Source of the DNA: Patescibacteria group bacterium
Lineage (GTDB): Bacteria > Patescibacteriota > Minisyncoccia > Phycocordibacterales > Phycocordibacteraceae
Direction: 5' to 3'
Length of the DNA stretch: 64,000 bases
Assembly: GCA_040390125.1 (NCBI GenBank)
Contig: JAZJYZ010000001.1
Location: 70,428-134,427 of the forward strand
Every line of letters begins with the position of its first letter. Position 1 is the stretch's first letter. The notes under the pieces were generated by a model. That model ran no database searches. It was not told the origin of the DNA and was given only the letters and a program-made list of their open reading frames with translations. A program made the position numbers and the translations under genes. Shown in pieces: positions 3,019 through 60,128 of the stretch.

Positions 3019-3254
3019 AAGATTCAAGTCGGTGCCCAGCCTCTCGGCACGATTTTCTAATCGCCTGCAGGAATCTCTCCTTACAGGAGCTGTACACCTC
3101 ATTCAGCAGAATGACTCTTGGAGCACGTGGATTTTTTCTTTCGGGAACTCAGAAAAAATGCACGCAGGATCTTCGATTCCTGCACGGATGTCTCCCAGAC
3201 ATCCTAGGGGGCACCAACAAAAATCGCCGCTCATGCGGCTGGTTTTTGTTTCTG

Positions 3255-3326
3255 TGCCCCCTGCAGGAATCGAACCTACATCGACGGCTTAGAAGTCCGC
3301 AGCTCTATCCATTGAGCTAAGGGGGC
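3255..3326 (-). tRNA. tRNA-Arg (anticodon TCT)
   Basis: The reverse complement reads GCCCCCT-TA-GCTC..GAGC-T-GCGGA-CTTCTAA-GCCGT-CGAT-GTAGG-TTCGATT-CCTGC-AGGGGGC-A. The anticodon loop is CTTCTAA. There is one 31-39 mismatch. No CCA is encoded. Confidence 0.8.
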
Positions 3327-4197: not shown

Positions 4198-4769
4198 GGT
4201 GCGTTCACGTCAAAGGTAAATGGTATTGAAAAATCTATATCGACTCCGGTTGCAAGATCTGAAACTGGCACCACTGCTCCCTCGAACATACGCTCACTTT
4301 CGAGCTTCTTTCCAAAATTAATCAACGCAAGACGTGTGTTTGCCTTTCCGGAGACGGTTACCTTTCCAACACCGGAGCTCGTTACAACAAGAGATATTGC
4401 ATTAACGTGTATGTCATCCGCTACCCCTGCAGTAATGCGTGAAAGTACCAGAGCAGTCGCTTGATCCCCCTGATACTCTTTCAGAACAGAAATACGTTCT
4501 TTCAAGAGTGAAATTTGCTGAACAGTGCCTGAAGATTGGTAGAGCTTTACGCTCTCGGCGGACGACTCCATGGCACGAACAGCAATACCCGCTTCGCTTT
4601 CTGCGAGGAAATACGACGGCATAAGGAGTGCAATACCGACAATACAAACACCCACGAGCAAGAACACAAAAAGACTCGCAAGCGCTGTGTAGTAACGAAC
4701 ACGAAGATTCATCTGCTCCTTTGGAGGAAGAAGGTTCACTCCGATAGAAATTTTGGAATTGTTTTTCAT
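4194..4769 (-). CDS. pilN: Type IV pilus assembly protein PilN
   Basis: 191 aa. N-terminal VNLLPPKEQ (the INLLP motif), followed by a TM segment. Confidence 0.55.
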   Translation of the reverse strand: MKNNSKISIGVNLLPPKEQMNLRVRYYTALASLFVFLLVGVCIVGIALLMPSYFLAESEAGIAVRAMESSAESVKLYQSSGTVQQISLLKERISVLKEYQGDQATALVLSRITAGVADDIHVNAISLVVTSSGVGKVTVSGKANTRLALINFGKKLESERMFEGAVVPVSDLATGVDIDFSIPFTFDVNAP

Positions 4770-10831: not shown

Positions 10832-11755
10832 ATGAATTTCTTTAAAAAATACGCTCCGTTTCTTGTCCTTTTTGCGGCGATGCTTTGGGCAACAGATGCA
10901 CCTTTCCGTATCCATTTAACCGAAGGTCTTTCAAGTAATTTTATTGTTCTTGGTGAGCACTTCATCGCCATACTATTTGTATTACCTATACTCCTTCTCA
11001 ATTTCAGAGAACTAAAAAAATTAAAACTAAAAGAGTGGTTAGCGGTTCTCTTCATTGCTATTGGCGGAAGTGCCCTTGCATCCATTGCGTTTACCCAAGC
11101 ATTCCATTACCTCAACCCATCGGTTGCAATTCTCTTACAGAAACTTCAACCATTCATGGTGATTGGTTTAGCGGCAGTCGTTTTGAAAGAAACACTGGGC
11201 AAGCGTTTTTGGCTTTTCGCTCTGGTCTCAATCGTGGGTGCATACCTCATCTCATTCCCTAATCTTATTCCGCAAACGTATCCCGGTGAGACATTTAATG
11301 CGAACCTGCTTGGCGTAGGACTCGCACTCATCGCTGCATTCTTCTGGGGTGCATCGACGGTGTTTGGTAAGGTGGTGCTGAATAAAACAAACTTTAAAGT
11401 TATGACGTCGCTCCGGTTTTGCGTTGCGTTTGTGTTTCTTGTTTTCTTGAACCTATTCCAACACTCGTTCCCCGAATGGAGCACCGTTACATCAACTGAC
11501 TATCTCTTCATATTCATAATCGGCATCACCTCAGGAGTGGTCTCACTCTTCATCTACTACAAAGGGCTTGAGAACACGAGTGCATCAGTTGCGACAATGG
11601 CGGAACTCGGCTTCCCTCTTGGGGCAGTTGTCGTGAACTGGATATTCCTAGGCGCCATTCTTCTCCCGATGCAAATCTTTGGCATGGCAATTCTACTGTT
11701 GGGTGTATACGGACTTGCGAAATACAACCGGGCATCTGAAGTGGCTAGCGTTTAG
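10832..11755 (+). CDS. EamA/DMT-family transporter
   Basis: 307 aa with about 10 TM helices and an EamA-like duplicated architecture. Confidence 0.6.
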   Translation: MNFFKKYAPFLVLFAAMLWATDAPFRIHLTEGLSSNFIVLGEHFIAILFVLPILLLNFRELKKLKLKEWLAVLFIAIGGSALASIAFTQAFHYLNPSVAILLQKLQPFMVIGLAAVVLKETLGKRFWLFALVSIVGAYLISFPNLIPQTYPGETFNANLLGVGLALIAAFFWGASTVFGKVVLNKTNFKVMTSLRFCVAFVFLVFLNLFQHSFPEWSTVTSTDYLFIFIIGITSGVVSLFIYYKGLENTSASVATMAELGFPLGAVVVNWIFLGAILLPMQIFGMAILLLGVYGLAKYNRASEVASV

Positions 11756-11799
11756 GGTTTAGTGCTCAGGGAACTCCCCTAAACGCTAAACGCTGTTCA

Positions 11800-13030: not shown

Positions 13031-13234
13031 ACTAGGCGATGCCCCATCGGATCCGCAGGGATCATTTAGTGTTTAGGGGATAGGGTCTAGAGAAAACACA
13101 TAGGACAGTGTTTTTTCGGGGTTTTGTGCTAAATTTGAACGACTGTTCGTAGGCAACTGCTCCCGTAAGCGAAGCTTTCGGGGGCTCGCTCGAAGAGTAT
13201 GAAAATGCTAGCATTTTCATGTTCCTTCTCTCTC

Positions 13235-13306
13235 GCTCCCGTCGTTCAATGGATAGGACATATCCTTGCGGAGGATACGATGTGGGTTCGATTCCTGCCG
13301 GGAGCA
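13235..13306 (+). tRNA. tRNA-Arg (anticodon GCG as read)
   Basis: GCTCCCG-TC-GTTC..GGAC-A-TATCC-TTGCGGA-GGATA-CGAT-GTGGG-TTCGATT-CCTGC-CGGGAGC-A. The anticodon loop TTGCGGA gives GCG, which is unusual because bacteria typically use ACG. No CCA is encoded. Confidence 0.75.
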
Positions 13307-13310
13307 CAGG

Positions 13311-13347
13311 TATAGAAAAAGTCGGGATTACTCCCGACTTTTTCTAT
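13311..13347. terminator. Bidirectional rho-independent terminator hairpin
   Basis: agaaaaa-GTCGGGA-ttac-TCCCGAC-tttttct, directly after the tRNA-Arg. Confidence 0.6.
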
Positions 13348-13356
13348 ACTCTAAAT

Positions 13357-13510
13357 GTGCTCCCGGCAGGAATCGAACTGCGGGCCGCAGGGAGCGATGA
13401 GCGACCGTAGGTTTCGAGTCGTAGCAACGACGAGAGGCGATTCCTGCCGCAACTCGTGACCGATTCCTGCTGAGAGGCGATTCCTGCCAAAATGCACGAC
13501 CGATTCCTAA
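13357..13510. repeat. tRNA-Arg 3'-end fragment array: one inverted 21-nt copy plus 2 x 2 tandem T-arm-like units
   Basis: 13357-13377 gtgctcccggcaggaatcgaa is the exact reverse complement of the 3' end of the tRNA at 13235-13306. 13431-13510 holds [gaggcgattcctgcc-N9-gaccgattcctg] twice. Confidence 0.7.
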
Positions 13511-19586: not shown

Positions 19587-19611
19587 GATGATGTTCCCTA
19601 AACGCTAAACC

Positions 19612-22077
19612 CTATTCACTAAATGTTCCCTCCGGAACCGACGAGGCGTCGCCTAGTTTAGACATTTCCCCCCAATTAGCTCCGACGGAAGAAGAGGAAA
19701 GAATGGGAACGCCTTTTGTTTTCTCAGGCGGGACTATTCCCTGCATATGCTCAAGGATTTTTGGGGCAAGCTCTTTTACTTTTTCTTTTCGTATTTCGAA
19801 AATAAGCTCATCGTGCACCTGGAGAATGAGGTGGGCATCTCCTTTGTATTCTCTCTGCAAAAGAGCATCGATTTCAATCATGGCGAGCTTGATGATGTCA
19901 GCTTGGGTGCCCTGCATCGGTGCGTTCAGTGCCTGTCGCTCTGCCTCGGCGCGCACGAAGGGCAATTTTGAACGAAGCCCCAGGAAAAAACGTTTCCTGC
20001 CGAAAAGTGTTTTCGTATAGCCGAGCCTGGACGCATCCGCTTTCACTGAAGTTAGATACTCTGCAAGACCTGCAAAGTTTGCAAAGTAGTCAGTGAGGTA
20101 TGCCTGTGCTTCGCTACGCTCAACTTTTTGTGCTCCAGTATCGAGGTTCATCTTGAGCGCATTGACTCCCATGCCATAGAGAATGCCGAAGTTAATAACC
20201 TTTGCCCTGCGACGCATCTCCGCATCAACTTCCTCGGGTGGAACTTTAAAAACGGCGGCGGCGACCGCACGGTGTACGTCCTCTCCACGCTTAAAAATAT
20301 CAATGAGCTTTTCATCACCCGAGAGAAATGCTGCAATGCGCAATTCTATTTGCGAATAGTCGAATGCTGCGAGCACAAAGCCTGGAGTAGCAACAAACGC
20401 ATTGCGGATACGTCGGCCAAGTTCGGTCTTAACAGGAATATTTTGCAAACCCGGGTCCTTTGAAGCCATGCGACCAGTTGCAGCGCCGGTCTGAATAAAC
20501 GTCGTGTGCAGACGACTTTCCTCGTCCAAGAGAGGCGGAATGGCGTCAATGTAGGTACCTAACAGCTTGGAGAGACTGCGATACGCAAGAATGTCATCGA
20601 TAATAGGATGTGCGTCTTTTAATTTTACTAGCTCGGATTCTTTAGTTGAGAGTTGGCCAGTTGCTGTCTTTTTTTGGCGTTTACCCTCTATGCCAATGCC
20701 AAGTTTAGTAAAAAGAATATCCCCTAGTTGCTTTGGTGAACTTATATTAAATTCTGTCCCCGCATGGGCATGTATTTTTTTCTCGAGCTTCGCAAGTTCT
20801 TTTGTATATTGATGCGATAGGTCTTTTAAATACGGCGCATCAATCAATACGCCACGTTTATTCATAGCCTCAACGACAGGAATGAGTGGTTTTTCAATGT
20901 TTTCAAAAACCCATGTTAATTCTTCCTTTTCCACCAGGATTTTGAGCTTCGCATGTGCCTCAGCAATACTGGCTGATTTTGTGTTCGCAAGCACGTCGTC
21001 GAGCGTCGGATTCGTAATCTCTGACTGGGTGAGCCAAAGCATGACTGCAGATTCAGCGAGAAGCGCTGAATCTGCAGAGTTTAGAGTACTGAGTCCAGAG
21101 TTCTGAGTTTCAGTAGTAACTTTGGACTCTGGACTCAGTACTCTCGACTCAGAACTGCCCGCCAAAGCACTCATTCTCGGCACAAGAGAACGGAACCCCA
21201 GATCGGTAAAAAGAGCCGTAGCGTTTGCAACATCAAGAGTGTCTCTAAATGTCTTTTCAGGTTCTTTAAAAACAATTGGTGCGTCGGTGCGTATCGTTGC
21301 CAAAACCTTTGAAAATTCAGCTTCATCTTCGTGCTCCCGAAGTAAATTTACGTTCCTCTCTGAAAACCCCGCCTCTTTCCACCTGTCCGTCGTCCACTGC
21401 GCACTGTGCACTGCTTTATATACCCCTTCCATTGAGTCAAATGCCTGCAAAAGCTTGGTTGCAGTTTTCTCACCAATACCAGGAATTCCTATGATGTTGT
21501 CAGATGGATCACCTGCAAATCCTTTGTAATCAGGAATGCGAACAGGTAGAAACCCGTATCTCGCAAGCACTGCTTTCTCATCGTAGAGAATAGTATCTTG
21601 AATACCTTTGCGAAGCGTAAATACTCGAACTTTTTCATCGTCAACCAACTGCAATGTATCCATGTCGCCGGACGCAATGATGACATTAAAGTTTTTTTTC
21701 GCACTCGTGGCTATCGTGCCAATAATATCGTCGGCTTCAAAGCCTGGCATTTCATAGATAGGAATACTGAACGCCGACAAAATGTCCCTTGAGCGATTAA
21801 TTTGCGTTATGAGAGAATCATCGATTTGTGGACGTTTCGCTTTGTACTCTTTATATACCTCGTGACGATGCGTTGGCCCTGGCAGGTCATACGCGGCAAC
21901 TACGTGGTCGGGCTTTAAATCCTTGATGATTTTTATGAGCATCGCTGCAAGTCCGTACACAGCATTCACTGGCTCCCCTGACGGCGAGTACATCTCCGGT
22001 AGTGCATGGTAGGCGCGATGGATAATCGCATGGGTATCAAGGAGGATGAGCGTCTCTTTTGCTTTTTTTGCACTCAT
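19612..22077 (-). CDS. polA: DNA polymerase I (5'-3' exonuclease plus polymerase domains, no recognisable 3'-5' exo domain)
   Basis: 821 aa. N-terminal DTHAIIHRAYHA (FEN/5'-exo). Motif B RRRAKVINFGILYGMG and motif C LQVHDELIFE are present. Confidence 0.9.
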   Translation of the reverse strand: MSAKKAKETLILLDTHAIIHRAYHALPEMYSPSGEPVNAVYGLAAMLIKIIKDLKPDHVVAAYDLPGPTHRHEVYKEYKAKRPQIDDSLITQINRSRDILSAFSIPIYEMPGFEADDIIGTIATSAKKNFNVIIASGDMDTLQLVDDEKVRVFTLRKGIQDTILYDEKAVLARYGFLPVRIPDYKGFAGDPSDNIIGIPGIGEKTATKLLQAFDSMEGVYKAVHSAQWTTDRWKEAGFSERNVNLLREHEDEAEFSKVLATIRTDAPIVFKEPEKTFRDTLDVANATALFTDLGFRSLVPRMSALAGSSESRVLSPESKVTTETQNSGLSTLNSADSALLAESAVMLWLTQSEITNPTLDDVLANTKSASIAEAHAKLKILVEKEELTWVFENIEKPLIPVVEAMNKRGVLIDAPYLKDLSHQYTKELAKLEKKIHAHAGTEFNISSPKQLGDILFTKLGIGIEGKRQKKTATGQLSTKESELVKLKDAHPIIDDILAYRSLSKLLGTYIDAIPPLLDEESRLHTTFIQTGAATGRMASKDPGLQNIPVKTELGRRIRNAFVATPGFVLAAFDYSQIELRIAAFLSGDEKLIDIFKRGEDVHRAVAAAVFKVPPEEVDAEMRRRAKVINFGILYGMGVNALKMNLDTGAQKVERSEAQAYLTDYFANFAGLAEYLTSVKADASRLGYTKTLFGRKRFFLGLRSKLPFVRAEAERQALNAPMQGTQADIIKLAMIEIDALLQREYKGDAHLILQVHDELIFEIRKEKVKELAPKILEHMQGIVPPEKTKGVPILSSSSVGANWGEMSKLGDASSVPEGTFSE

Positions 22078-22511: not shown

Positions 22512-22608
22512 ATCTCTTATAATCAGTATAATGCCGTTTCTTGGATGTTCCCAAGCTAAAAGCTAGAAGCTAGAAGCTAGAAGCTACCTTTAAGGTACTA
22601 TTCTCTCT

Positions 22609-25838: not shown

Positions 25839-26033
25839 TCAATCGTCTTCCTTTATCCAGCCCAAAGCGTTTGCTACATCTCTCGGCACTATTCCAGAAC
25901 CGTTACAGGTGGAGCAACTCTCCTCTTTCATACCAGAGCGTCTTCCATAGAAGCCCGGGCGCACTTTGCTGCAACCCTCCGCCATGCAACGTAACGCTCT
26001 ATTTTCAAAACGTAAGTGAGGCTCTCCAAGCAT
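25839..26033 (-). CDS. Small zinc-ribbon-like protein with a CxxCxGxG motif, hypothetical
   Basis: 64 aa containing RCMAEGCSKV...ESCSTCNGSG. Confidence 0.3.
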   Translation of the reverse strand: MLGEPHLRFENRALRCMAEGCSKVRPGFYGRRSGMKEESCSTCNGSGIVPRDVANALGWIKEDD

Positions 26034-26572
26034 CTGAAGAAGATATCATTTTTAGGCTGACTAACTTGAGTTTTTTAGAAAAACTATTGTTTTTATCAAC
26101 CTTTGTTACATTCATAACAAAACCTCTCTACTATTTGAGATAAATCTCTGTCATTGATCAGGATTCGGTTGACGTCCTGTTCCGCCACACCAAACACAGT
26201 CCCCTCCTTTGCCGCCACACATCCAGCATTGTTCCTCCGGGAGAATGTGCGAGCGTCTTTCGTTATTCAAGAACATAAATATTTGTCCCCTCTATATTCC
26301 TGTAATGTCGACCTGTTACTTCCTGCTCAGGCTGTATTGAAGTAGGCCGTGTCTCCGACGTGTACGTCAGAGAACGTGGCCGCCCCCCTAATCGCCCGGC
26401 ATTGCTAATGAGAACATCGAGAATGGACGGTTGTTCTGATGGGTGTTCGTAGTTCATATTGTTTTTTTATTTATTACCACTACTAATATTTAAAGTGTGC
26501 CGGCATGAAGGAATAAAGTTAATTTCTTTGCGAAGGTTATTGATTTTTAACAAATTATGTTACATTTAAAAC

Positions 26573-27214
26573 ATGTTAAGTATTCCTGAAGCCGTACAGC
26601 AAGCTACGGAGAAGGATGGATTTCTTCATTTCGGACTCTCGAATGGAGTGTTAAACCTTTCTAAAACAGCACGTTTCATAAAACCGCTCATTGAGGTTCG
26701 TACGAAAAAAAGCGTGAGCGTGGCGGCTATCACTATGGCGCTTTCACGCCTTAAAACATTAAAAAAGAGAACTAATGTTCAATTGAAACAAGTAAAACTT
26801 GATTCAATAAATATCACAAAAAATCTTGCGGAAATTACATTCGAAAGAACCTCACACAATATTGCTGCACTTGAAAAAGTAGAGAAAGAAGTGCGTAGTA
26901 AGAACGGGTATATCGTCATAACGTTCGGCACTACTGAACTTACCATCATCGTCGAGGAAAATTTTCTTCCGAGTATTAAAAAAATCATGCCCGCAAGCCC
27001 GAAAGTAATACTGCCAGGACTTGTTGCCGTAGGGGCACAATTTAATGAAAATTATATTGCTCACGTCGGAATGGTATACGCACTGATACAGCAACTCACC
27101 TTTCAAAACATTAACGTAGTTGAATTCTCCTCAACATATACGGAACTCGTTTTTTACCTCAATAAGAAAGATATGAAGCTCGCATTTGATACGCTGTACG
27201 AGCAATTCATGTAA
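26573..27214 (+). CDS. Hypothetical protein
   Basis: 213 aa with no recognised motif. Confidence 0.4.
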   Translation: MLSIPEAVQQATEKDGFLHFGLSNGVLNLSKTARFIKPLIEVRTKKSVSVAAITMALSRLKTLKKRTNVQLKQVKLDSINITKNLAEITFERTSHNIAALEKVEKEVRSKNGYIVITFGTTELTIIVEENFLPSIKKIMPASPKVILPGLVAVGAQFNENYIAHVGMVYALIQQLTFQNINVVEFSSTYTELVFYLNKKDMKLAFDTLYEQFM

Positions 27215-27220
27215 ATATTC

Positions 27221-27736
27221 ATGTCCTCCCTAAAAGCTGAAAGCCAAAAGCTAAAAGCCTCTGTCATCGCTGTCGACCCTGGTTACGATCGGGTGGGCAT
27301 TGCGGTAATGGAAGGAAGCGCCCTCATTCACTCTGAATGCTTCACTCCTGAGAAGGGCGCCGTATCGTTGCGCTTAGGTGCAGTGTTTCAACACGTGAAT
27401 GCTGTTATAAAAAAATACGCCCCTGACGCACTCGCAATAGAGACTCTCTTTTTCACTAAGAACCAAAAGACCGCAATACACGTAGCTGAAGCTCGGGGCG
27501 TGATAACCCTCGCCGGGGTGGAGGCGGGCATCCCTGTGTTTGAATATTCTCCTCAAGAGGTGAAAATCGCAGTATCAGGATCAGGCAATGCAAGCAAAAA
27601 GGGCGTCATCAGAATGGTGGAGATGTTGGTGCCAATGGGTCATAAAAAGCGTCATGACGACGAATACGACGCCATAGCATTAGCTATAGCTCATCAATCG
27701 AGTGCAAAATTCAGGCAGGCTCGCAGTGGAAAATAA
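27221..27736 (+). CDS. ruvC: Crossover-junction endodeoxyribonuclease RuvC (with a short N-terminal extension)
   Basis: VIAVDPGYDRVGIAV...ALAIETLFF...AIALAIAH. The first 14 codons (MSSLKAESQKLKAS) are encoded by the aaagctgaaagc-type oligo-repeat. Confidence 0.8.
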   Translation: MSSLKAESQKLKASVIAVDPGYDRVGIAVMEGSALIHSECFTPEKGAVSLRLGAVFQHVNAVIKKYAPDALAIETLFFTKNQKTAIHVAEARGVITLAGVEAGIPVFEYSPQEVKIAVSGSGNASKKGVIRMVEMLVPMGHKKRHDDEYDAIALAIAHQSSAKFRQARSGK

Positions 27737-27741
27737 TAGAA

Positions 27742-27898
27742 CCTGTCTAGAACCTTCCCCCTGCCCAAAAAGCTCTGTTTCCGGCTACAAAACTTCGTCT
27801 CGTCCTTAACGTAATGCTATTACGTTTCGGATTCCGACTCGTTTCTCGCTCAGAAACAGAACTTTTCAGTCTGGGTACCACGAGATTCTAGACAGGTT
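27742..27898. repeat. Structured element of about 157 bp bounded by perfect 15-bp inverted repeats (agaacctgtctagaa / ttctagacaggttct) with nested internal IRs
   Basis: Seen directly in the sequence. Internal sub-hairpins: ctctgtttc...gaaacagaac and cttaacgtaatgctattacgtttcgg. Confidence 0.6.
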
Positions 27899-27994
27899 CT
27901 TACGTTTCTGGTGTTTTCCCCTACCGCCCCCTAATGCCACTTGCTAAGAAATAAAGTTTTGGTACAAATAGGGCGTTAGAAAAATATATTACGT

Positions 27995-28135
27995 ATGCTG
28001 AGCGATTCTAAGAAAAAGAAAGGTTTTGAGGACGAGGAGCTGGAAGATACGCTTGTGTCTCCTCCGGCGGAAGAAGATTTACTCGATGAGGAGGAAGAGG
28101 AAGACACCTTCGGAGACGAAGACGACATGATGTAA
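27995..28135 (+). CDS. Small highly acidic protein (46 aa), hypothetical, not in the ORF track
   Basis: MLSDSKKKKGFEDEELEDTLVSPPAEEDLLDEEEEEDTFGDEDDMM, followed immediately by a plus-strand terminator. Confidence 0.3.
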   Translation: MLSDSKKKKGFEDEELEDTLVSPPAEEDLLDEEEEEDTFGDEDDMM

Positions 28136-28142
28136 TAAAGCT

Positions 28143-28176
28143 CCGCCCGACGAGACACTCCAGGGCGGTTTTTTTA
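28143..28176 (+). terminator. Rho-independent terminator (CCGCCC...GGGCGG plus T8)
   Basis: ccgcccgacgagacactccagggcggtttttttattt. The T-run is on the plus strand only. Confidence 0.5.
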
Positions 28177-29376
28177 TTTACGACTGATCGCAGCAAACCT
28201 ATGTTTGCCTACACGAATAATCGTTCCGTTTTCGGGTTGAAAATCAATGTCTGTAATTTTCTCATCGCTTCCAACTATCCGCACCGCCCCCTCGTTTATT
28301 AACCGCCGCCATTCCGTCTTCGAAGCAATCACCCTATTTCGAACAAGCACATCAACGAGCAATTCGCTGGCCGACATTTCGTACACAGGCACACCACTTG
28401 GTGCTTCTCGTTTAGAAAAAGCCGAAGTGAAATGTTCCTCTGCCTTCTTGCTTTCCTTATCGCCGTGATACATCCGCACAATTTCTGATGCAAGTTCAAA
28501 TTTCGCATCCCGGGGACCTTTGGTGAGAATACTCTTCACTGTGTCGAGTGGTACACGTGTGCAGTGAATAAAATACGTCTCAATAAGTGGGTCAGGTATG
28601 CTCATGACTTTGCCAAACATATCTTCCGGCACATCATTGAGATTTATAGTGTTGCCCCAGCTTGAGCTCATCTTTCTACCGTCAGTTCCAGGAATAAGCT
28701 CGCTCATCAGAATATGCTGAGGAGCTTGGCCTGCTTTCCCTTGGAGCACTCTGCCTGCAAGGAGATTAAATCTCTGGTCGGTACCGCCTAACTCAACGTC
28801 CGCTTGAACCGCAACGCTGTCATACCCTTGCATGAGTGGGTACAGCACTTCACGAAGAGAAACCCGCTTCCCGTCGTCTAAGCGACGCTTAATGTTGTCG
28901 CGAGCAATGAAGTCGGATACAGAAAACGCATCTGCCTGATCGCCAATTTGCGCATAATTCAGTTTTAAAAGCCACTCAGAGTTGTGTCGCACTTCAAGTA
29001 AGTTTTTGTCGAGGATTTTCTCTGCTTGTGCAACATACTGTGCGAGGTTCTTTTCGACATCAGCTTGACTGAGCATGGGGCGTTCACTCTCTTTGTCTGA
29101 AGTGTCGCCAACAACGCCCGTTGCATCCCCTATGATGAAAACTACGGTGTGCCCTAGGTTCTGAAAATCTCTAAGTTTCAAAAGTGGTACTGCTCGGCCA
29201 ATGTGAAGATTCGGACTCGTCGGGTCTATGCCAAGCTTGATACGTAAACGCTTTCCGCTCAATAAAAGTTTCCGGAGCGATTCACCCGATGGAATAATTT
29301 CAATGACACTCCTCGTTACTAGTGTTTCTATCTTCGCAGGGTCAGTGCTCACGGGGACTTTAGATTTAAAAAACAT
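28174..29376 (-). CDS. tyrS: Tyrosyl-tRNA synthetase
   Basis: 400 aa. HIGH-region PTSPNLHIGRAVPL...GDATGVVGD, KMSKS variant GRKMSSS, and a C-terminal S4-like domain. Confidence 0.85.
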   Translation of the reverse strand: MFFKSKVPVSTDPAKIETLVTRSVIEIIPSGESLRKLLLSGKRLRIKLGIDPTSPNLHIGRAVPLLKLRDFQNLGHTVVFIIGDATGVVGDTSDKESERPMLSQADVEKNLAQYVAQAEKILDKNLLEVRHNSEWLLKLNYAQIGDQADAFSVSDFIARDNIKRRLDDGKRVSLREVLYPLMQGYDSVAVQADVELGGTDQRFNLLAGRVLQGKAGQAPQHILMSELIPGTDGRKMSSSWGNTINLNDVPEDMFGKVMSIPDPLIETYFIHCTRVPLDTVKSILTKGPRDAKFELASEIVRMYHGDKESKKAEEHFTSAFSKREAPSGVPVYEMSASELLVDVLVRNRVIASKTEWRRLINEGAVRIVGSDEKITDIDFQPENGTIIRVGKHRFAAISRK

Positions 29377-31605: not shown

Positions 31606-31700
31606 GGGGGGGCTTCCAGCTGTCAGCTTCTAGCTTTCAGCTTTCAGCTTTAATTTCAGAAAAGCTGGAAGCTGGCACCTGGAAGCTAGAAGCTAATTAG
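31606..31700. repeat. Oligo-repeat spacer forming a long imperfect hairpin (agctttcag / agctagaag words) between convergent genes; likely a bidirectional terminator
   Basis: cttccagctgtcagcttctagctttcagctttcagcttt-aatttc-agaaaagctggaagctggcacctggaagctagaagct. Confidence 0.55.
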
Positions 31701-31960
31701 CGGATATCCCTCACTATATTTCGAGCTTTAGGTATTTCTTGAAATAGCTCTGCAAGAATCGCACCCCTCGCAACTTGAATTGCACTTTTTGCAATAGAGG
31801 AACACTTAACAAACGCCACATTGTTAGAAATTGAAATATCTTCTTTTTTAACAGGTACTTTTGCAATAAAAGAAACTGAAGACGCAACGGCACGACGAAT
31901 CGCATCATCTGGCGGGGTGAGGTTCTGGAACCTGGCGAGAAAATCATTTACGAGTTTCAT
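31697..31960 (-). CDS. Small protein downstream of dnaN; possible DUF721/DciA-like
   Basis: 87 aa. The position immediately after dnaN is typical for DUF721. The family assignment is unverified. Confidence 0.3.
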   Translation of the reverse strand: MKLVNDFLARFQNLTPPDDAIRRAVASSVSFIAKVPVKKEDISISNNVAFVKCSSIAKSAIQVARGAILAELFQEIPKARNIVRDIR

Positions 31961-32025
31961 AAGGTGCTAGGTGCTAGGTGCTAGGTGCTAGCTTTAAAAG
32001 CTAGAAGCTAGTCCCTAGAACCTGA
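31961..32025. repeat. Oligo-repeat spacer ((ggtgctag)x4, agctagaag)
   Basis: aaggtgctaggtgctaggtgctaggtgctagctttaaaagctagaagctagtccctagaacc. Confidence 0.5.
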
Positions 32026-33126
32026 CTAACGATTCATCGGCATCACAAGGTAGGTGAACCCCTTTCCTTGGCTATCGGTCATAACCATTGGTTTCCCGGC
32101 GCCCGCCACAGAAAAAGTAACACTATCCCCCGCAACGATTGAGAGTGCATCAATGATGTATTTTGCATTAAAGTTTATATCGATATCCTCGCCGGTGAGC
32201 ACTGCGGGAATATGATCAACCGTCTCCCCCACTGACGCATTAACCGCACGAACCGTAAAAGTCTTCTCTGAGGGTTTAAGAGAAATGTGGACCTGATTAA
32301 ATGAGTCAGTGAATATGGATACTTTGCGAAACGCACGTATAGCATCCTCTTTGAGACAGGTTGCGGACGCAACGTAATCTCGAGGAATAATCGCATGATA
32401 GTCAGGAAAGGCACCATCAATAGTTCTTGAAGTAATGTGCCCAAAATCAGAAATAAATGAGCACTGATTATCCCCCACACGTACTTCAACCTCAGACCCA
32501 AACTCAATCGCTCGCAGGATATCAAGAACATTCCGAGCAGGAATCAATACCGAACCAAAAGAACTTTTTGTTTTGATGGGTATTTTTACCTCAGCAAGAC
32601 GAAATGAGTCGGTAGCCACCGCAACCAATTCCCCTTTTTCTAAAGTAAGAGAAATACTTGAGAGCTCAGGCTTAACGCTCGACACTGATGCAGAAAATGA
32701 AACCGACTTTAGTGCACCAATAAACTCACGGACTGGTAATACAGTAGACGTACCCACACCCTCCTTTACATACGGCAGTGTAGGAAATTCCGATGGATCG
32801 ACTAACGTAATTGATGTAGTCCCCCTATCCCCATCAATAATAAGATTATTACCTGATGTTTTTAAAATTAATTTCTGATCAGTAAGTGCTGAAACTGTTT
32901 GCGACAAGATATGTGCAGGGACAGCAATAACCCCATCCTGACTCGTCTTTGCTTTAAGTACCACCTCAACACTCAAATCAAGATTGGTGGCACGAAGAAC
33001 AGCCCTCCCACCTTCAACTACTATCAAAACACAACCAAATACTGGAAGTGAGAGACTTTTATTACTCACCTTAGAGGCAATACCAACAGCCCTCTCTAAA
33101 TTCTCTCTTAATATCTCAATTTTCAT
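32026..33126 (-). CDS. dnaN: DNA polymerase III beta sliding clamp
   Basis: 366 aa, three-domain size, with MKIEILRENLERAVGIASKVS...LPVFGCVLI. Confidence 0.85.
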   Translation of the reverse strand: MKIEILRENLERAVGIASKVSNKSLSLPVFGCVLIVVEGGRAVLRATNLDLSVEVVLKAKTSQDGVIAVPAHILSQTVSALTDQKLILKTSGNNLIIDGDRGTTSITLVDPSEFPTLPYVKEGVGTSTVLPVREFIGALKSVSFSASVSSVKPELSSISLTLEKGELVAVATDSFRLAEVKIPIKTKSSFGSVLIPARNVLDILRAIEFGSEVEVRVGDNQCSFISDFGHITSRTIDGAFPDYHAIIPRDYVASATCLKEDAIRAFRKVSIFTDSFNQVHISLKPSEKTFTVRAVNASVGETVDHIPAVLTGEDIDINFNAKYIIDALSIVAGDSVTFSVAGAGKPMVMTDSQGKGFTYLVMPMNR

Positions 33127-33358: not shown

Positions 33359-34705
33359 TCATTTCAACATCCCACGAATTTCCTCTATTTGGGTTTTTAA
33401 ATCACCATCAGTAATGATTCCTCCACGAACTTTTTCACATGCATGAATAACAGTTGTGTGATCTCGCCCACCAAAAACAGTCCCTATAGCTGGATACGAT
33501 AGATGAAAATCTTCCCGGAGTATGTACATCATTATTTGACGAGGACGAACCACCTCTCTGCGTCTTGTTTTTGCATACATACTCGCCTCATCGATGTTAT
33601 AGAATTCAGCAATTCTTGAAATAACATGCTTTACAGACACAATACGTTTAGGTCTGGCGGTATTTTTTATAAGATCTTTTATTTGATCTTCTCCTAGTAT
33701 TCCCTTGAGTTGTATTTGGCAAAGAATAGTATTTAACATACCCTCTATTTCACGGATGTTTCCTGGCACCGCCATAGAAAGGCTCTCTATAGCCGTATCT
33801 GAGAGGTTGAGGTTCATTGATTCAGCTTTCGTTTTAATGATTGCCATTCTGGACTCATGGTCAGGTTCATTTATGGCGACAGCCATCCCCGCTACAAAAC
33901 GAGACTTGAGACGTTCCGTTATGTCAGGGATGAGGTTTGGGTGTTTATCGCTTGAGCAAACGATTTGCTTGTTCGCATCGTGGAGTGTATTGAAAAGGTG
34001 GAAAAATTCTTCTTGGATCGTCCCCTTTTTCGAAAAGAACTGTATGTCGTCGATTATAAGAACGTCATACGAGCGATATTTCTCTTTAAATGAAGGGATA
34101 CTGCGGTTATTGATGGCGTTCATGAACTCAAACCCAAATCTCTCAGCAGTAAGATAGAACACTTTCTTTGATGGGTAGGCTTTTTTTATCTGATTACCCA
34201 CCGCTTGAGTGAGATGCGTTTTCCCGCGTCCTGTTTCTCCGTATACGAAGAGTGGGTTGTAGGCAATACCGGGATTTTTAACAACCACTTGACCTGCAGT
34301 GAAGGCGAGCTCATTAAAAGGCCCCACGACGAAGGTATCGAAGGTGTAGCGTGGATTAAGATTGTCTGAGCGGTTGATGTAGTAGTCGGACAAAGGAAGC
34401 TCTGATTCGGTTCGAGTTTCTACGATGACCTTTTCTGGTGCTCTTTTAGGGCTTTCTTTTGAAACGATATATTCGACGCCACGAAGTGTGTCAACAAAGC
34501 CACGGATGGTCTTTAAAACGAGTTTTCCGAAGCGTTCAGATATCCATTCTTTCGTCAGTTGGTTGGGAACCCCGACAAACACAACCCCGTCTTCTATCCG
34601 TACAATGTGAGTTTCGCCGAACCACATCTTGAAACTCGCAGGAGATATTGAAAGCTCTATGTTCGTAAGCGTATTTTCCCAGAGTTGTTTTGTGTCAAGT
34701 TCCAT
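33359..34705 (-). CDS. dnaA: Chromosomal replication initiator DnaA
   Basis: 448 aa. Walker A GETGRGKTHL, IIDDIQF, and a C-terminal DNA-binding helix (...VFGGRDHTTVIHA). Confidence 0.9.
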   Translation of the reverse strand: MELDTKQLWENTLTNIELSISPASFKMWFGETHIVRIEDGVVFVGVPNQLTKEWISERFGKLVLKTIRGFVDTLRGVEYIVSKESPKRAPEKVIVETRTESELPLSDYYINRSDNLNPRYTFDTFVVGPFNELAFTAGQVVVKNPGIAYNPLFVYGETGRGKTHLTQAVGNQIKKAYPSKKVFYLTAERFGFEFMNAINNRSIPSFKEKYRSYDVLIIDDIQFFSKKGTIQEEFFHLFNTLHDANKQIVCSSDKHPNLIPDITERLKSRFVAGMAVAINEPDHESRMAIIKTKAESMNLNLSDTAIESLSMAVPGNIREIEGMLNTILCQIQLKGILGEDQIKDLIKNTARPKRIVSVKHVISRIAEFYNIDEASMYAKTRRREVVRPRQIMMYILREDFHLSYPAIGTVFGGRDHTTVIHACEKVRGGIITDGDLKTQIEEIRGMLK

Positions 34706-34820: not shown

Positions 34821-34976
34821 ATGAAAAGAACATACCAACCTAAAAAAAGAAAGAGAGCTACAACCCACGGCTTCTTGGTCCGCACAGCAACTACCTCTGG
34901 CAGGAAGGTTTTGAAGAATCGTCGTCGCAAAGGCCGTGCAAAACTCACTGTTCAAAGCAAGAAAAAGGGAAAATAG
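34821..34976 (+). CDS. rpmH: 50S ribosomal protein L34
   Basis: 51 aa: [44 protein letters not shown].... It is not in the ORF track because it is under 60 aa. Confidence 0.85.
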
Positions 34977-35052
34977 TGTTTAGGGTGTAGGGAAAGAAGT
35001 TTATTTTTCATGCTTCCCTAGTGGCTATACCCTAGTGGCTACCCCCTAATCT

Positions 35053-35367
35053 ATGTTGTCGAAAAAAGAGCGCGTTTCAAGGCTCACATTCCAAAAGCGA
35101 CCTGTACGTACAGGTCGCTTTATATATGGCTCTATAAAAGGGTTTGAGGGAGATCCTGCTGGGGCCGTTGTCGTTTCAAAAAAAGTCTGCCGTACGGCTC
35201 CAGCACGAAATAAGCTTAGACGAAGGATTTACAATATTCTCCGTCCTCTCATCCGCACCAAGGCACTTCAAGGTAACGTTATCGTGTATCCAAATGCACT
35301 GGCTATGAAGGCTCCGTTTCAAGAGCTGAAGAAAGAACTGGAGAAGCGTTTAGGGGTTAGCGTTTAG
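35053..35367 (+). CDS. rnpA: RNase P protein component
   Basis: 104 aa. LSKKERV...RNKLRRRI... is basic and RnpA-like, and its position after rpmH fits. Confidence 0.75.
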   Translation: MLSKKERVSRLTFQKRPVRTGRFIYGSIKGFEGDPAGAVVVSKKVCRTAPARNKLRRRIYNILRPLIRTKALQGNVIVYPNALAMKAPFQELKKELEKRLGVSV

Positions 35368-35450
35368 GGGCTAGTGTTGACAGAAAGGTAAAAAATATAG
35401 AACCCTACTTCGCTAAACGCTAAACACTAGCCCCTAACCCCTCTCCTGCG
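35368..35450. repeat. Oligo-repeat spacer forming an inverted repeat (ggggttagcgtttaggggctagtgtt ... aacactagcccctaacccct)
   Basis: Seen directly. It contains the ctaaacgctaaac word shared with other junctions. Confidence 0.55.
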
Positions 35451-39574: not shown

Positions 39575-39738
39575 TTATAAGGGATGGGGAAGCTTTCAGC
39601 TTTCAGCTTTCAGCTTTCAGGGGGGAAATCAGCAGGGAGGCTTCTAGCGGACAGGCGATGTTTCATCGGATCCGTAGGGATCATTTAGCGTCTAGCTTTA
39701 ACTGCAGAAGCTAGTCGCTAAACGCTAGCCGCTATCCC
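39575..39738. repeat. Oligo-repeat spacer ((agctttcag)x3, agctagtcgctaaacgctagc) plus a 32-nt motif shared with 13045-13076
   Basis: Seen directly in the sequence. Confidence 0.55.
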
Positions 39739-41550
39739 CTAGCTGTTTCCCTCTCTTTTCTCCCGTGCTATCGAAAGCAACTGGGATGGGTCTGAGGTAA
39801 TTATCTGGTCTTCTGTGTAGGAGGCGATGATTTTTATGGCTACGTGCTTAAGACCTGCGAAGAAAATACCTTCACCGACGTCAGATTCTAGAAGCAGGTA
39901 TTTCTCCTCCTCGGTTAAGTTGAAGGTTTTTTGCACGGCCTCTATGGATGTGGGTGACTGCTTGAGAAGAATCTGAATAGAAGAGTTGGTGAGCATCGGC
40001 AAACCGTAGGGAGACTTCAAGAAGTCTTCTACGTCTTGAGTAATAGTGGCGAGCCCCAGATAGTATTTTCTTCCACGTTTCGCCATACCATAGAGGAATG
40101 CAGCAGTGTCTTCAGATTTCATCATCCACCACGCCTCGTCAATGACGAGCAGACGTTTACGCAGGTCCTTCCTGACCGCATTCCAAATAAAGTGCGTAAT
40201 GATATACATCGCAATCGTTTTTAGCTCGTCTTCCATGTTTCGAACTGAAAACGCCACGAACTTTTTGTTGATGTCTACGTTTGTTGGTCGGTTAATGAAG
40301 CCAGACCACGTACCTTTTGTGTATTTTGTAACTCTCTGCACCAAGGACTCGCTTCCTTCCATGCCTGCAAGCACAAGTTCGAAGTCAGACAAAAGCGGCG
40401 GCTCCATGTTGGTGAAGTCGTTGGCACCAGTGATGTCTTTAAGTGCGTACGTTTCTGTAATGGCCCGATCAATAATTGCATCTTCTTCAGGGGTAAGACC
40501 GCCAAGCATCAACCGAAACAATCCCACTAAGTTGATTATGTTTGATCGCAAGATGTCAGCCGGCGATTCATCTTCACGTGGCACCGGCAAATCGAAAGGG
40601 TTGATGCGGTTTTCTGAAGACAGTGAAATATTGAAAAATCTTCCACCAACGGCGTTTGCCAGGTACTCGTATTCGCTTTCAGGGTCTATGACGATGACTT
40701 CAGTGTCGAACATGAGCGACCGCAATATTTCAAGCTTCGTACCATATGACTTTCCGGAGCCAGATTTCGCAAAGGTGACGGAGTTATAGTTTTCCAAGGA
40801 AAATCTGTCGAACAAGATTAACGATGAGTTGTGTCTGTTAATGCCGTACAGAATTCCCTTGTCGCTTGTGAGGTCGAATGAAATGAATGGGAAGAAGCTT
40901 GAAAGCGGAGCAGAGTTCATTTTTGAGTTAACGGCGAGCTGGTCATCCCCTATCGGTATGACGCTTCGAAATCCCTGCTCTTGCTGGAAGAGAGCTGGTT
41001 TTATGTATACGAGTTTTGCGTCAAGAATCGAACGCATTTCGGCCTCTGTTTTGTCGAGCTCATCTTGGTTCGTGCCATAAATCGATATATAAAGACCAAC
41101 ATCAAATATGCGTTCTTGTGCCTGCTGGAGTTGATCACGGAGTTGTTCAATGTCTTGGGAGGCCGTGTCGAGTATTGGGTCACGCACCATCCCCTTCTCT
41201 TGGCGTGTCATTCTTTGGCTTTGAACCTCGGCAACCTTTTTCTGTAGTTTTCGAAGGACTGCCGCAGTGTCGATTGGATGGATGAATATAGAAATATCCA
41301 AAACCCTGTCACGGTTAATGATTGGTGCAAACCATGTGCCAGACAAAAAGCGAGGATATGAAATCACGTAAAAGGTACGCACCAGCTTGTCGCCCAAGTT
41401 CATCTCACGAGGAGTAATTTTGAGAGCTGACGGTGCAATAATGTCAGCAAAGTCTAACTTCGCCGCTTCGTAAATGTCTTTTGGCAAAAACGGCGTCAGT
41501 GCGTCTTTCTTTTTTGTTCCTTTCCCAGTGAATGCGTCGAAAATTCCCAT
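39739..41550 (-). CDS. Type IV secretion/conjugation ATPase, VirB4/TraC/TrbE class (C-terminal ATPase portion)
   Basis: 603 aa with Walker A FAKSGSGKSYG, DPESEY and Walker B LLVIDEAWWMM. The overall pattern matches VirB4-family ATPases. Confidence 0.7.
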   Translation of the reverse strand: MGIFDAFTGKGTKKKDALTPFLPKDIYEAAKLDFADIIAPSALKITPREMNLGDKLVRTFYVISYPRFLSGTWFAPIINRDRVLDISIFIHPIDTAAVLRKLQKKVAEVQSQRMTRQEKGMVRDPILDTASQDIEQLRDQLQQAQERIFDVGLYISIYGTNQDELDKTEAEMRSILDAKLVYIKPALFQQEQGFRSVIPIGDDQLAVNSKMNSAPLSSFFPFISFDLTSDKGILYGINRHNSSLILFDRFSLENYNSVTFAKSGSGKSYGTKLEILRSLMFDTEVIVIDPESEYEYLANAVGGRFFNISLSSENRINPFDLPVPREDESPADILRSNIINLVGLFRLMLGGLTPEEDAIIDRAITETYALKDITGANDFTNMEPPLLSDFELVLAGMEGSESLVQRVTKYTKGTWSGFINRPTNVDINKKFVAFSVRNMEDELKTIAMYIITHFIWNAVRKDLRKRLLVIDEAWWMMKSEDTAAFLYGMAKRGRKYYLGLATITQDVEDFLKSPYGLPMLTNSSIQILLKQSPTSIEAVQKTFNLTEEEKYLLLESDVGEGIFFAGLKHVAIKIIASYTEDQIITSDPSQLLSIAREKREGNS

Positions 41551-42227: not shown

Positions 42228-42249
42228 AGTATTTGAAAGGTTCTAGCTT

Positions 42250-42630
42250 CTAGGTGCTAGCTTTAAGGCTAGCAATCACAGCGACAAGCATTCTTGAAAC
42301 TTCTTCGAGCATTGCCGTCGATTCATTATAGTCGATTTTTTCTCCGTATTCTAAGCGTTTAGCCATTTCCAACTGTGTTTCTAGCTCTGAAGTAGATCCT
42401 AATGCGATGTGTAAAAATTGTGCAAAATCTTTTCTGGTACCACGTGATCTACCTTCGGCTATATTGGAAGGAATAGAAACAGCACTTCTTCTCATTTGAG
42501 AAATAAGTCCAAATTTTTCTTCCGATGGAAACTTTGAAGTAAATTTGTAAATAACCATTGCTAAATCTACCCCCTTTTGCCAAACAATCAGGTCTTTATG
42601 AGAACGTATTTGAGTTTTAGTTTTTTGCAT
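42250..42630 (-). CDS. Four-helix-bundle protein ('23S rRNA intervening-sequence protein' family), paralog 1
   Basis: 126 aa with LIVWQKGVDLAMVIYKFTSKFPSEEKFGLISQMRRSAVSIPSNIAEGRSR...FLHIALGSTSELETQL, the family signature. Confidence 0.7.
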   Translation of the reverse strand: MQKTKTQIRSHKDLIVWQKGVDLAMVIYKFTSKFPSEEKFGLISQMRRSAVSIPSNIAEGRSRGTRKDFAQFLHIALGSTSELETQLEMAKRLEYGEKIDYNESTAMLEEVSRMLVAVIASLKAST

Positions 42631-42674
42631 TTGAAAGCTAGCACCTAGAACCTAGTCCCTAGCACCCCCCCCCT

Positions 42675-43564: not shown

Positions 43565-43629
43565 ATTTTCTAGCTTCTTAATTCAGCGTCTTAAAGCTGT
43601 ACACTGTTCACTAAACACTATCCCCTACC

Positions 43630-60039: not shown

Positions 60040-60128
60040 TCCTAACATGGCTAGCCATTAGCCACTAGAGATTAGCCAATAGGGAGGATTTGGTCAGTCT
60101 GAGTTCCCTACACCCTAGTGGCGAGTGG
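60040..60128. repeat. Oligo-repeat spacer (ctagccattagccactag ... ccctagtggcgagtggctaat)
   Basis: Same word style as 34977-35052 (cctagtggcta). Confidence 0.5.

Follow-up and report, generated by a model that had tools for sequence, protein, structure and literature searches.

A 161-bp segment immediately downstream of ruvC (27739-27899) in the window, i.e., the whole 64,000-nt stretch of Patescibacteria DNA that was analyzed, is very probably a MITE that arose as a non-autonomous derivative or hitch-hiker of an ~830-bp IS5-family IS of the IS1031-like type. The partner IS type encodes one transposase of ~262 aa, is bounded by 17-bp terminal repeats, and duplicates 3 bp of its target (TNA). 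The MITE reading is preferred because the ends of the segment are identical to those of an autonomous IS, TNA flanks are found family-wide, homologues occur at unrelated loci, and the corresponding site is empty in relatives. The first-pass annotation had left the choice between a MITE-like element and a highly structured small RNA; the former is strongly supported by the IS-identical ends, the TNA flanks, and the empty sites, whereas for the latter there was no Rfam match, no consensus promoter, and no conservation at the locus.

Structure of the Element Downstream of ruvC

The segment carries a perfect 15-nt inverted repeat, agaacctgtctagaa at 27738-27752 and its exact reverse complement at 27886-27900; with up to two mismatches allowed, this 15-mer was found at these two sites only in the 64 kb, compared with 0.15 expected from shuffles. 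The inverted repeat lengthens to 18 nt at 94% (27738-27755 / 27883-27900), and the terminal repeats themselves are 17 nt long, with the consensus GAACCTGTCTAGAA(C/T)CT. The left repeat, GAACCTGTCTAGAACCT (27739-27755, + strand), pairs at 16 of 17 positions with the right repeat, which reads GAACCTGTCTAGAATCT on the − strand (27883-27899). An IS on contig L095 has a left end (1534-1550) that agrees with the right repeat at 17/17 positions, as do the group A and group B ends described below, and with the left repeat at 16/17. The first-pass annotation, which had outlined 27737-27994 and placed 15-bp perfect repeats at 27742-27756 and 27884-27898 around an element of about 157 bp, was correct in that the perfect repeats are present and the bounded element is real; however, the repeat coordinates were off by 4 and 2 nt, the body (GAACC...GGTTC) is 161 bp long (27739-27899), and the outlined span, although it holds the element, also takes in the conserved upstream region of the next gene (27901-27994).

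Between the terminal repeats lies an internal imperfect palindrome (27759-27875), whose arms at 27759-27781 and 27853-27875 form a nested dyad of 23 nt at 78%, with an apical hairpin of 13 nt at 85% (27803-27815 / 27819-27831), in agreement with the earlier statement that the segment contains at least two inner dyads. A 201-nt stretch folded into one rod hairpin on either strand, with an energy of −69.6 kcal/mol and a z-score of −7.2 for the + strand and of −83.6 kcal/mol and −7.7 for the − strand; none of 200 shuffles folded as well, and hairpin z-scores overall were −7 to −10. The 161-bp element alone likewise forms a single rod hairpin, of −78.6 kcal/mol on the − strand and −60.8 kcal/mol on the + strand.

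The description of the region as non-coding was essentially upheld: the longest stop-free stretches span 44-46 codons on both strands, and a six-frame peptide query of the element against 5.8 billion protein clusters returned no relative at E <= 1. Such a query is a weak proxy for a DNA search, and a known 38-aa ORF at the edge of Logan contig L002 was also missed by it. This contig and a second one of the same genome, L001 (both SRR26324623), stop inside the MITE, ending at window positions 27775 and 27802, respectively, and overlap by 28 nt only; the breaks may stem from reduced coverage at the hairpin, from further diverged copies, or from strain polymorphism.

A profile of the window element and two relatives (L089 and L096, described below) found the window copy with nhmmer at E 2e-37, and no second copy was detected by blastn-short or nhmmer in the 64-kb window or in 69 fetched loci. 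The copy-number check proposed in the first-pass annotation therefore gave one copy within these 64 kb of the 748,944-bp contig. Phage and plasmid collections held no blastn match to the element, and no IS5 transposase was found in the 64-kb window by tblastn with the L095 transposase.

The Insertion Is Absent From Syntenic Relatives

The ORF at 27221-27736 (+ strand) is ruvC, as had been annotated (PF02075 RuvC, E 4.6e-35), and its stop codon, TAA at 27734-27736, aligns with the stops of relatives; the element starts 2 nt past this stop codon. Beyond the element lies the native spacer between ruvC and the next gene (27903-27994, + strand), which aligns with the spacers of seven relatives after removal of the MITE and contains a conserved promoter-like block (TTGCTA at 27941-27946, 16 nt, and TACAAAT at 27963-27969). 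Judged from its sequence, this block may be a promoter; a consensus promoter scan did not call it. The spacer leads into a conserved ORF encoding a 46-aa acidic protein (27995-28135, + strand), also outside the element. Relatives have a 43-47-aa ORF in this place, identity at the DNA level is ∼70%, and a convergent tyrS lies downstream.

The locus was compared with 15 syntenic relatives with RuvC identities of 60-86% (L003-L011 from GTDB genomes and L065-L069 from protein look-ups), in which the gene order is ruvB, mazG, (a hypothetical gene), ruvC, acidic ORF, tyrS, and a penicillin-binding protein (PBP) gene. The element was missing from all 15, seven of which were aligned explicitly. The spacer between ruvC and the acidic ORF is roughly 60-120 nt in the relatives, L010 excepted, compared with 258 nt in the window, and DNA similarity to the closest relatives breaks off at 27723 and restarts at 27957. 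When 27739-27902 (the element plus one copy of the duplication) was taken out, the window spacer became collinear with those of the seven relatives, including the stop codon and the promoter-like block, and the reconstructed empty site reads ...GGAAAATAATACGTTTCTGG.... The surplus length of the spacer and its collinearity after removal therefore identify the hairpin as a ∼164-nt insertion specific to the window lineage; the insertion is not narrowly dated, because RuvC identity to the closest relatives is just 83-86%.

The exceptional spacer, that of L010, contains an unrelated structured insertion of ∼230 nt (4480-4740), which is GC-rich, forms several hairpins, and has no similarity to the window element. 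A structured element shared 3′ of ruvC across lineages was considered and rejected, as the L010 insertion is unrelated, the L029 and L030 candidates are high-GC coding sequence, and the L022 candidate is a coding repeat.

Several further features of the neighborhood were recorded. An arrangement of TTGCYA, ∼16 nt, and TACAAATAGGGCGTTAGAA lies upstream of the acidic ORF in the spacers of L003-L009, L011, L065-L068, and the window. In several relatives the TTGCYA block is preceded by TTATCCACA, which is identical to the consensus DnaA box; the window has TTTTCCCCT there. On the other side of ruvC, the interval between mazG and ruvC (window 25839-27214) is a variable segment encoding a 213-aa protein without a Pfam match together with small CxxC-rich ORFs; it occurs only in the window, L004, and L066, and mazG directly precedes ruvC in L003, L005, L006, and L007. 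The window and L004 are 83% identical in RuvC and 98% identical in RuvB.

Related Elements in Metagenomes

Metagenome contigs were scanned with a one-armed 18-mer, AGAACCTGTCTAGAAYCT, and the resulting 32 loci were oriented and clustered. Group A (11 loci) has a common extended sequence behind the repeat and 11 different flanks, and many of its hits sit about 110-127 nt from the end of a contig and face inward, the signature of an assembler-collapsed repeat. This group codes for ...TFAWLENYRRLWKNCERTLENSRQSCLLAGVAILLKRF*, with the stop TAG falling within the terminal repeat, and because the peptide aligns to the C-terminus of a transposase (residues 224-260 of P0121, a 261-aa IS5-family transposase, E 1e-11), group A represents the right end of an autonomous IS. 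The six loci of group B are MITE copies of ∼170 nt, with six different flanks. Related subfamilies thus occur in multiple copies in other assemblies, as 11 group A IS ends and six group B sites. About a dozen further matches were unrelated singles, as chance predicts for an 18-mer.

The loci also comprised five complete MITEs with the terminal repeats of the window element, on L070 (77 bp), L072 (162 bp), L095 (162 bp), L089 (186 bp), and L096 (183 bp). Beyond the terminal repeats, the elements on L089 and L096 also resemble the window element across the interior, sharing with it the motif GCGA(A/G)AA(T/A)C and the apex CGAAACGTA...TACGTT, and have an additional ∼30 nt near one end. The profile of these D-type elements is directional, giving the window element 127 bits one way round and 36 bits the other, and it found the window, L089, and L096 copies each at full length. 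Both relatives occupy loci unrelated to that of the window: L089 lies between alaS and khpA (a KH-domain gene) on a 784-kb contig, and L096 between a pilB-like T2SSE ATPase gene and a response-regulator gene.

A two-armed pattern, ACCTGTCTAGAA N{118,148} TTCTAGACAGGT, returned no matches in the metagenomes, because the gap was too narrow and the pattern too strict, the cores of the relatives being ∼50 to 158 nt apart or having a mismatch in one arm. Among viral contigs, the 18-mer had one match (L064), which lacked a partner arm, apparently lay in coding sequence, and was judged to be due to chance.

The Probable Parent IS Belongs to the IS5 Family

The IS on L095, a metagenome contig from another organism than that of the window, starts with the same 17-mer as the window element. 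Its transposase ORF begins 34 nt past the terminal repeat and is split by a frameshift, and it matches PF13340 DUF4096 (E 1.8e-18) followed by PF01609 DDE_Tnp_1 (E 1.2e-15); once joined, the transposase reaches 157 bits (cut-off 110; E 5.9e-46) with NCBIfam NF033580, "IS5 family transposase." On the same contig (1366-1550), the 162-bp MITE and the IS5-family IS stand head to tail with one common TTA (...GGTTC TTA GAACCTGTCTAGAATCT...), an arrangement that suggests either that one inserted within or beside the other at a duplicated target or that MITE formation is caught at an intermediate stage.

The closest full-length transposases, at 68-73% identity, are named as IS5 family and come from Candidatus Kaiserbacteria, Elusimicrobia, Candidatus Spechtbacteria, Moraniibacteria, and others. 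Intact ISs were delimited in Candidatus Kaiserbacteria (L102, 829 bp, with perfect 17-nt repeats GAAACTGTCTAAATTCT) and Candidatus Spechtbacteria (L103, 840 bp, with perfect 17-nt repeats GAGCCTGTTCAAAATCT); both are flanked by a perfect TAA/TAA target duplication, and in both the only ORF, of 261-262 aa, runs to a stop within the right repeat. Members of the IS1031 group of the IS5 family commonly have one ORF and a three-nucleotide insertion site (PMC2516522). The parent IS is accordingly assigned to the IS5 family and, provisionally, to an IS1031-like type, the subgroup (IS1031 vs. IS427) being read from sequence layout rather than from a phylogeny.

The window element shares with these IS1031-like ISs 17-bp repeats starting with GA, which are identical to those of the L095 IS and match those of L102 and L103 at 14/17 and 13/17 positions, as well as an AT-rich spacer as the insertion site and, imperfectly in the window copy, the 3-bp TNA/TWA target duplication. 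Unlike these ISs, which are ∼830 bp long, it is 161 bp long, has no transposase, and is unrelated to them in its interior beyond the terminal repeats.

Target-Site Duplications and Stop Codons

The first-pass annotation had proposed looking for a target-site duplication, and candidate flanking copies were found. The right copy is TTA (27900-27902), the three bases after GGTTC; however, the left copy, where TTA would be expected, is an imperfect ATA (27736-27738) that overlaps the final base of the ruvC stop codon, so that two of three positions match. Because the ruvC stop codon of the relatives sits at the aligned position, the left copy is most simply explained in one of two ways: either the element inserted at a TTA just past the TAA stop and one T was then lost, or a single base was substituted. 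A perfect TTA/TAA duplication is found in four of the five other complete MITEs (TAA/TAA in L070; TTA/TTA in L072, L095, and L096), the fifth, L089, being flanked by TAA/TAC. Among the one-ended sites of groups A and B, TNA was present in all 17 (TAA 7, TTA 7, TCA 2, and TGA 1). Since TAA and TGA fit TNA, stop codons are natural targets, and their use as landing sites explains the presence of hairpins directly at gene ends; in L096, the duplicated triplet doubles as the stop of the adjacent pilB-like gene.

Other Repeats and Structures in the Window

Intergenic arrays of the form (TAGNNNN)n are a separate feature of the window, with 20 runs of at least three units compared with 0.74 expected in shuffles. 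They include arrays at 11746-11788, 13067-13094, 19594-19621, 22552-22586, 31625-31694, 31963-32022, 34974-35048, 35351-35436, 39686-39741, 42238-42264, 42634-42666, 43607-43627, and 60052-60117. The TAG-heptamer arrays often occur on both strands, so that their arms form a hairpin and stops fall in all frames, and at least one position is common to the window and the relative L006; a role as terminator or insulator modules is possible. Arrays of heptamer repeats are known from other phyla (PMC4679880). Two of the ORFs in the window lie between such arrays. TAG-heptamer inverted repeats of 27 nt enclose a gene (42250-42630, − strand) whose 126-aa product is a 23S-rRNA-intervening-sequence protein (PF05635, E 5e-41), which gives the whole (42238-42660) a cassette-like look, and heptamer arrays likewise enclose an 87-aa ORF without a Pfam match (31697-31960, − strand).

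Inverted partial copies of tRNA-Arg genes, which may be remnants of integration sites, were found at two places: a 30-nt copy of the 3′ end of tRNA-Arg(gcg), 90% identical, at 13349-13378 (region 13286-13378), preceded by a perfect 18-bp hairpin (13310-13349), and a 16-nt copy near tRNA-Arg(tct) at 3172-3274. The 821-aa polA ORF (19612-22077, − strand) contains two strong hairpins (14 nt, perfect; 33 nt at 85%) at 21045-21150, placed, apparently in frame, where the exonuclease domain gives way to the polymerase domain. The gene dnaN (32026-33126), with all three DNA_pol3_beta domains, is about 4 kb away from the MITE, so that the replication origin region may be nearby; a 448-aa ORF (33359-34705) adjoins dnaN.

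Alternative Explanations

Three other explanations of the hairpin were weighed against the MITE reading. If the segment were a structured small-RNA gene or a cis-acting RNA element (3′-UTR stabilizer, RNase III substrate, or terminator), the hairpin would be under selection and the likeness to IS ends secondary, as in a co-opted MITE, and such a reading would accommodate the very stable fold on both strands, the greater stability of one orientation by 8-20 kcal/mol in every subfamily, the 18 of 70 pairs that changed on both sides yet remain paired among three diverged members, and the UUAUUUU that follows the stem on the − strand. It is nevertheless highly unlikely, given that the element matches no Rfam family even at E 10, has no consensus promoter on either strand, and is missing from every syntenic relative, and that its family lies at unrelated loci with TNA duplications, which is the behavior of a transposon and not of a gene; moreover, apparent compensatory changes in a palindromic transposon can also come, with no selection on RNA, from arm-to-arm conversion or repeated fold-back formation. 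The covariance search that the first-pass annotation had suggested yielded only tRNAs when Rfam 15 was run at gathering thresholds over the whole window, and two chance-level matches, both outside the element, over 27600-28200 at E <= 10. Two specific RNA candidates were also considered. A housekeeping RNA (6S, SRP, or similar) was rejected for want of a large central bubble or a conserved SRP motif and because the element is missing from relatives. An intrinsic ruvC terminator is at most a possible side effect: the + strand tail, UACGUUUCU, is only weakly U-rich, and a terminator scan made no call.

That the segment might be an odd member of the TAG-heptamer arrays, namely an ORF-less form of the 23S-rRNA-intervening-sequence cassette, is suggested by the two occurrences of TAGAACC in its left arm, by a 9-mer, CTAGAACCT, found only in the element and in the arrays at 32015, 42645, and 42238(−), and by the heptamer-built 27-nt inverted repeats that flank the PF05635 gene (42250-42630). 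The TAGAACC copies, however, are 11 nt apart rather than 7, no run of three or more units occurs in 27737-27900, and ∼0.7 shared 9-mers are expected by chance (an estimate for a 164-nt element against ∼1200 array 9-mers); the CTAG is accounted for by the stop codon of the transposase, which falls within the terminal repeat of the IS, and the ends match IS ends at 17/17. We therefore consider this origin extremely unlikely, and the earlier judgment that the segment does not resemble the oligo-repeat spacers essentially holds, CTAGAACCT being the only 9-mer in common. Scarcely credible is a chance palindrome, or a local one made by a template-switching inverted duplication, with no mobility: a single copy in the window and imperfect interior arms are what it would give, but identical 17-nt ends with a homologous interior recur in unrelated contigs, the flanks obey the TNA rule, and neither half of the element resembles the local sequence of the relatives. 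The first-pass annotation had held that a single copy with no expression and no conservation in relatives would mark a chance palindrome; the element is literally a single copy within the window and is not conserved among syntenic relatives, yet its identification as a MITE stands because the family occurs at other loci and in other organisms.

Strand Asymmetry of the Hairpin

Folding gave one continuous rod hairpin for each subfamily (B, C, D, as well as the 77-bp form), and in all seven folded elements one orientation is more stable than the other by 8-20 kcal/mol. The energies (stable / other orientation, kcal/mol) are −78.6 / −60.8 for the window element, −94.8 / −78.6 for L089, −120.5 / −112.7 for L096, −81.0 / −66.2 for L072, −77.5 / −58.9 for L095, −71.5 / −51.6 for L075, and −35.9 / −27.1 for L070. 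The asymmetry exists because transition mismatches fall as G.U on one strand; in the window element, six are A.C on the + strand (G.U on the − strand), compared with two in the reverse sense. In the three D-type members, both partners have changed in 18 of 70 consensus pairs, with pairing kept. In six of seven insertions, the stable orientation runs antisense to the genes on either side, a bias that is not significant (two-sided binomial p ∼0.125).

It is possible, though we think it unlikely, that the full-length rod hairpin is a selected, strand-specific feature of the MITE family and not a by-product of similar ends. The asymmetry and the paired changes could reflect selection on a single-stranded hairpin, or arm-to-arm conversion or repeated fold-back formation, between which three sequences cannot separate. 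Were the hairpin selected, it might serve as a single-stranded DNA form in transposition, or in RNA as a terminator, a processing site, or an antisense transcript; alternatively, selection might filter the orientation that is tolerated beside genes in small Patescibacteria genomes.

Discussion

Under the MITE reading, a transposase supplied in trans by an IS of this type, the presumed route of mobilization, would bind both 17-bp repeats, excise or copy the element, and insert it at a TNA site, mostly TTA or TAA, with duplication of the trinucleotide. In the window lineage, the element would have landed directly after the ruvC stop codon and upstream of the promoter of the next gene, so that nothing would have been disrupted. 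An mRNA reading through from ruvC would, according to the folding model, bear a very stable 3′ hairpin (∼−61 kcal/mol) that could act as a stabilizer or terminator, and we infer that the element may insulate ruvC from the downstream promoter.

Bacterial MITEs are elements of 50-1000 bp with terminal repeats and target duplications, and this kind of element is already known, because MITEs whose sole resemblance to IS5-family elements lies in the terminal repeats have been described, including the type II MITEs BrickBuilt in Porphyromonas gingivalis and ATR in Neisseria, which have IS5-family ends (PMC4596501). Like these, the window element is short, lacks a transposase, and has ends (near-)identical to those of full IS5-family elements around an unrelated interior (PMC4596501). 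It differs from them in host phylum and in the terminal repeat, theirs being GAGACCTTTGCA, and also in that it is a continuous rod hairpin without internal tandem repeats.

Comparable features are found in other groups of repeats as well. Eukaryotic Tourist-like MITEs are moved by PIF/Harbinger transposases, the eukaryotic relatives of IS5, and have a 3-bp TWA (TTA/TAA) duplication, short terminal repeats, and a tendency to form hairpins; being eukaryotic and unrelated in sequence, they resemble the window element in mechanism only. Correia elements in Neisseria, ERIC, and RUP are intergenic imperfect palindromes of 100-200 bp that are co-transcribed with their neighbors and can affect mRNA processing or stability. 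The window element is likewise an intergenic imperfect palindrome but has no sequence similarity to them.

For annotation, the segment is a mobile-element insertion that should be labeled a MITE; it is neither a new RNA gene nor a regulatory structure of ruvC. The strand asymmetry of the hairpin is the sole feature that might repay more work. The 17-nt signature GAACCTGTCTAGAATCT can be used for finding more copies. No description of MITEs in the phylum Patescibacteria was found in the literature, and the present analysis documents, in Patescibacteria and in metagenomic organisms, a system of an IS5-family IS and MITEs with a TNA target.
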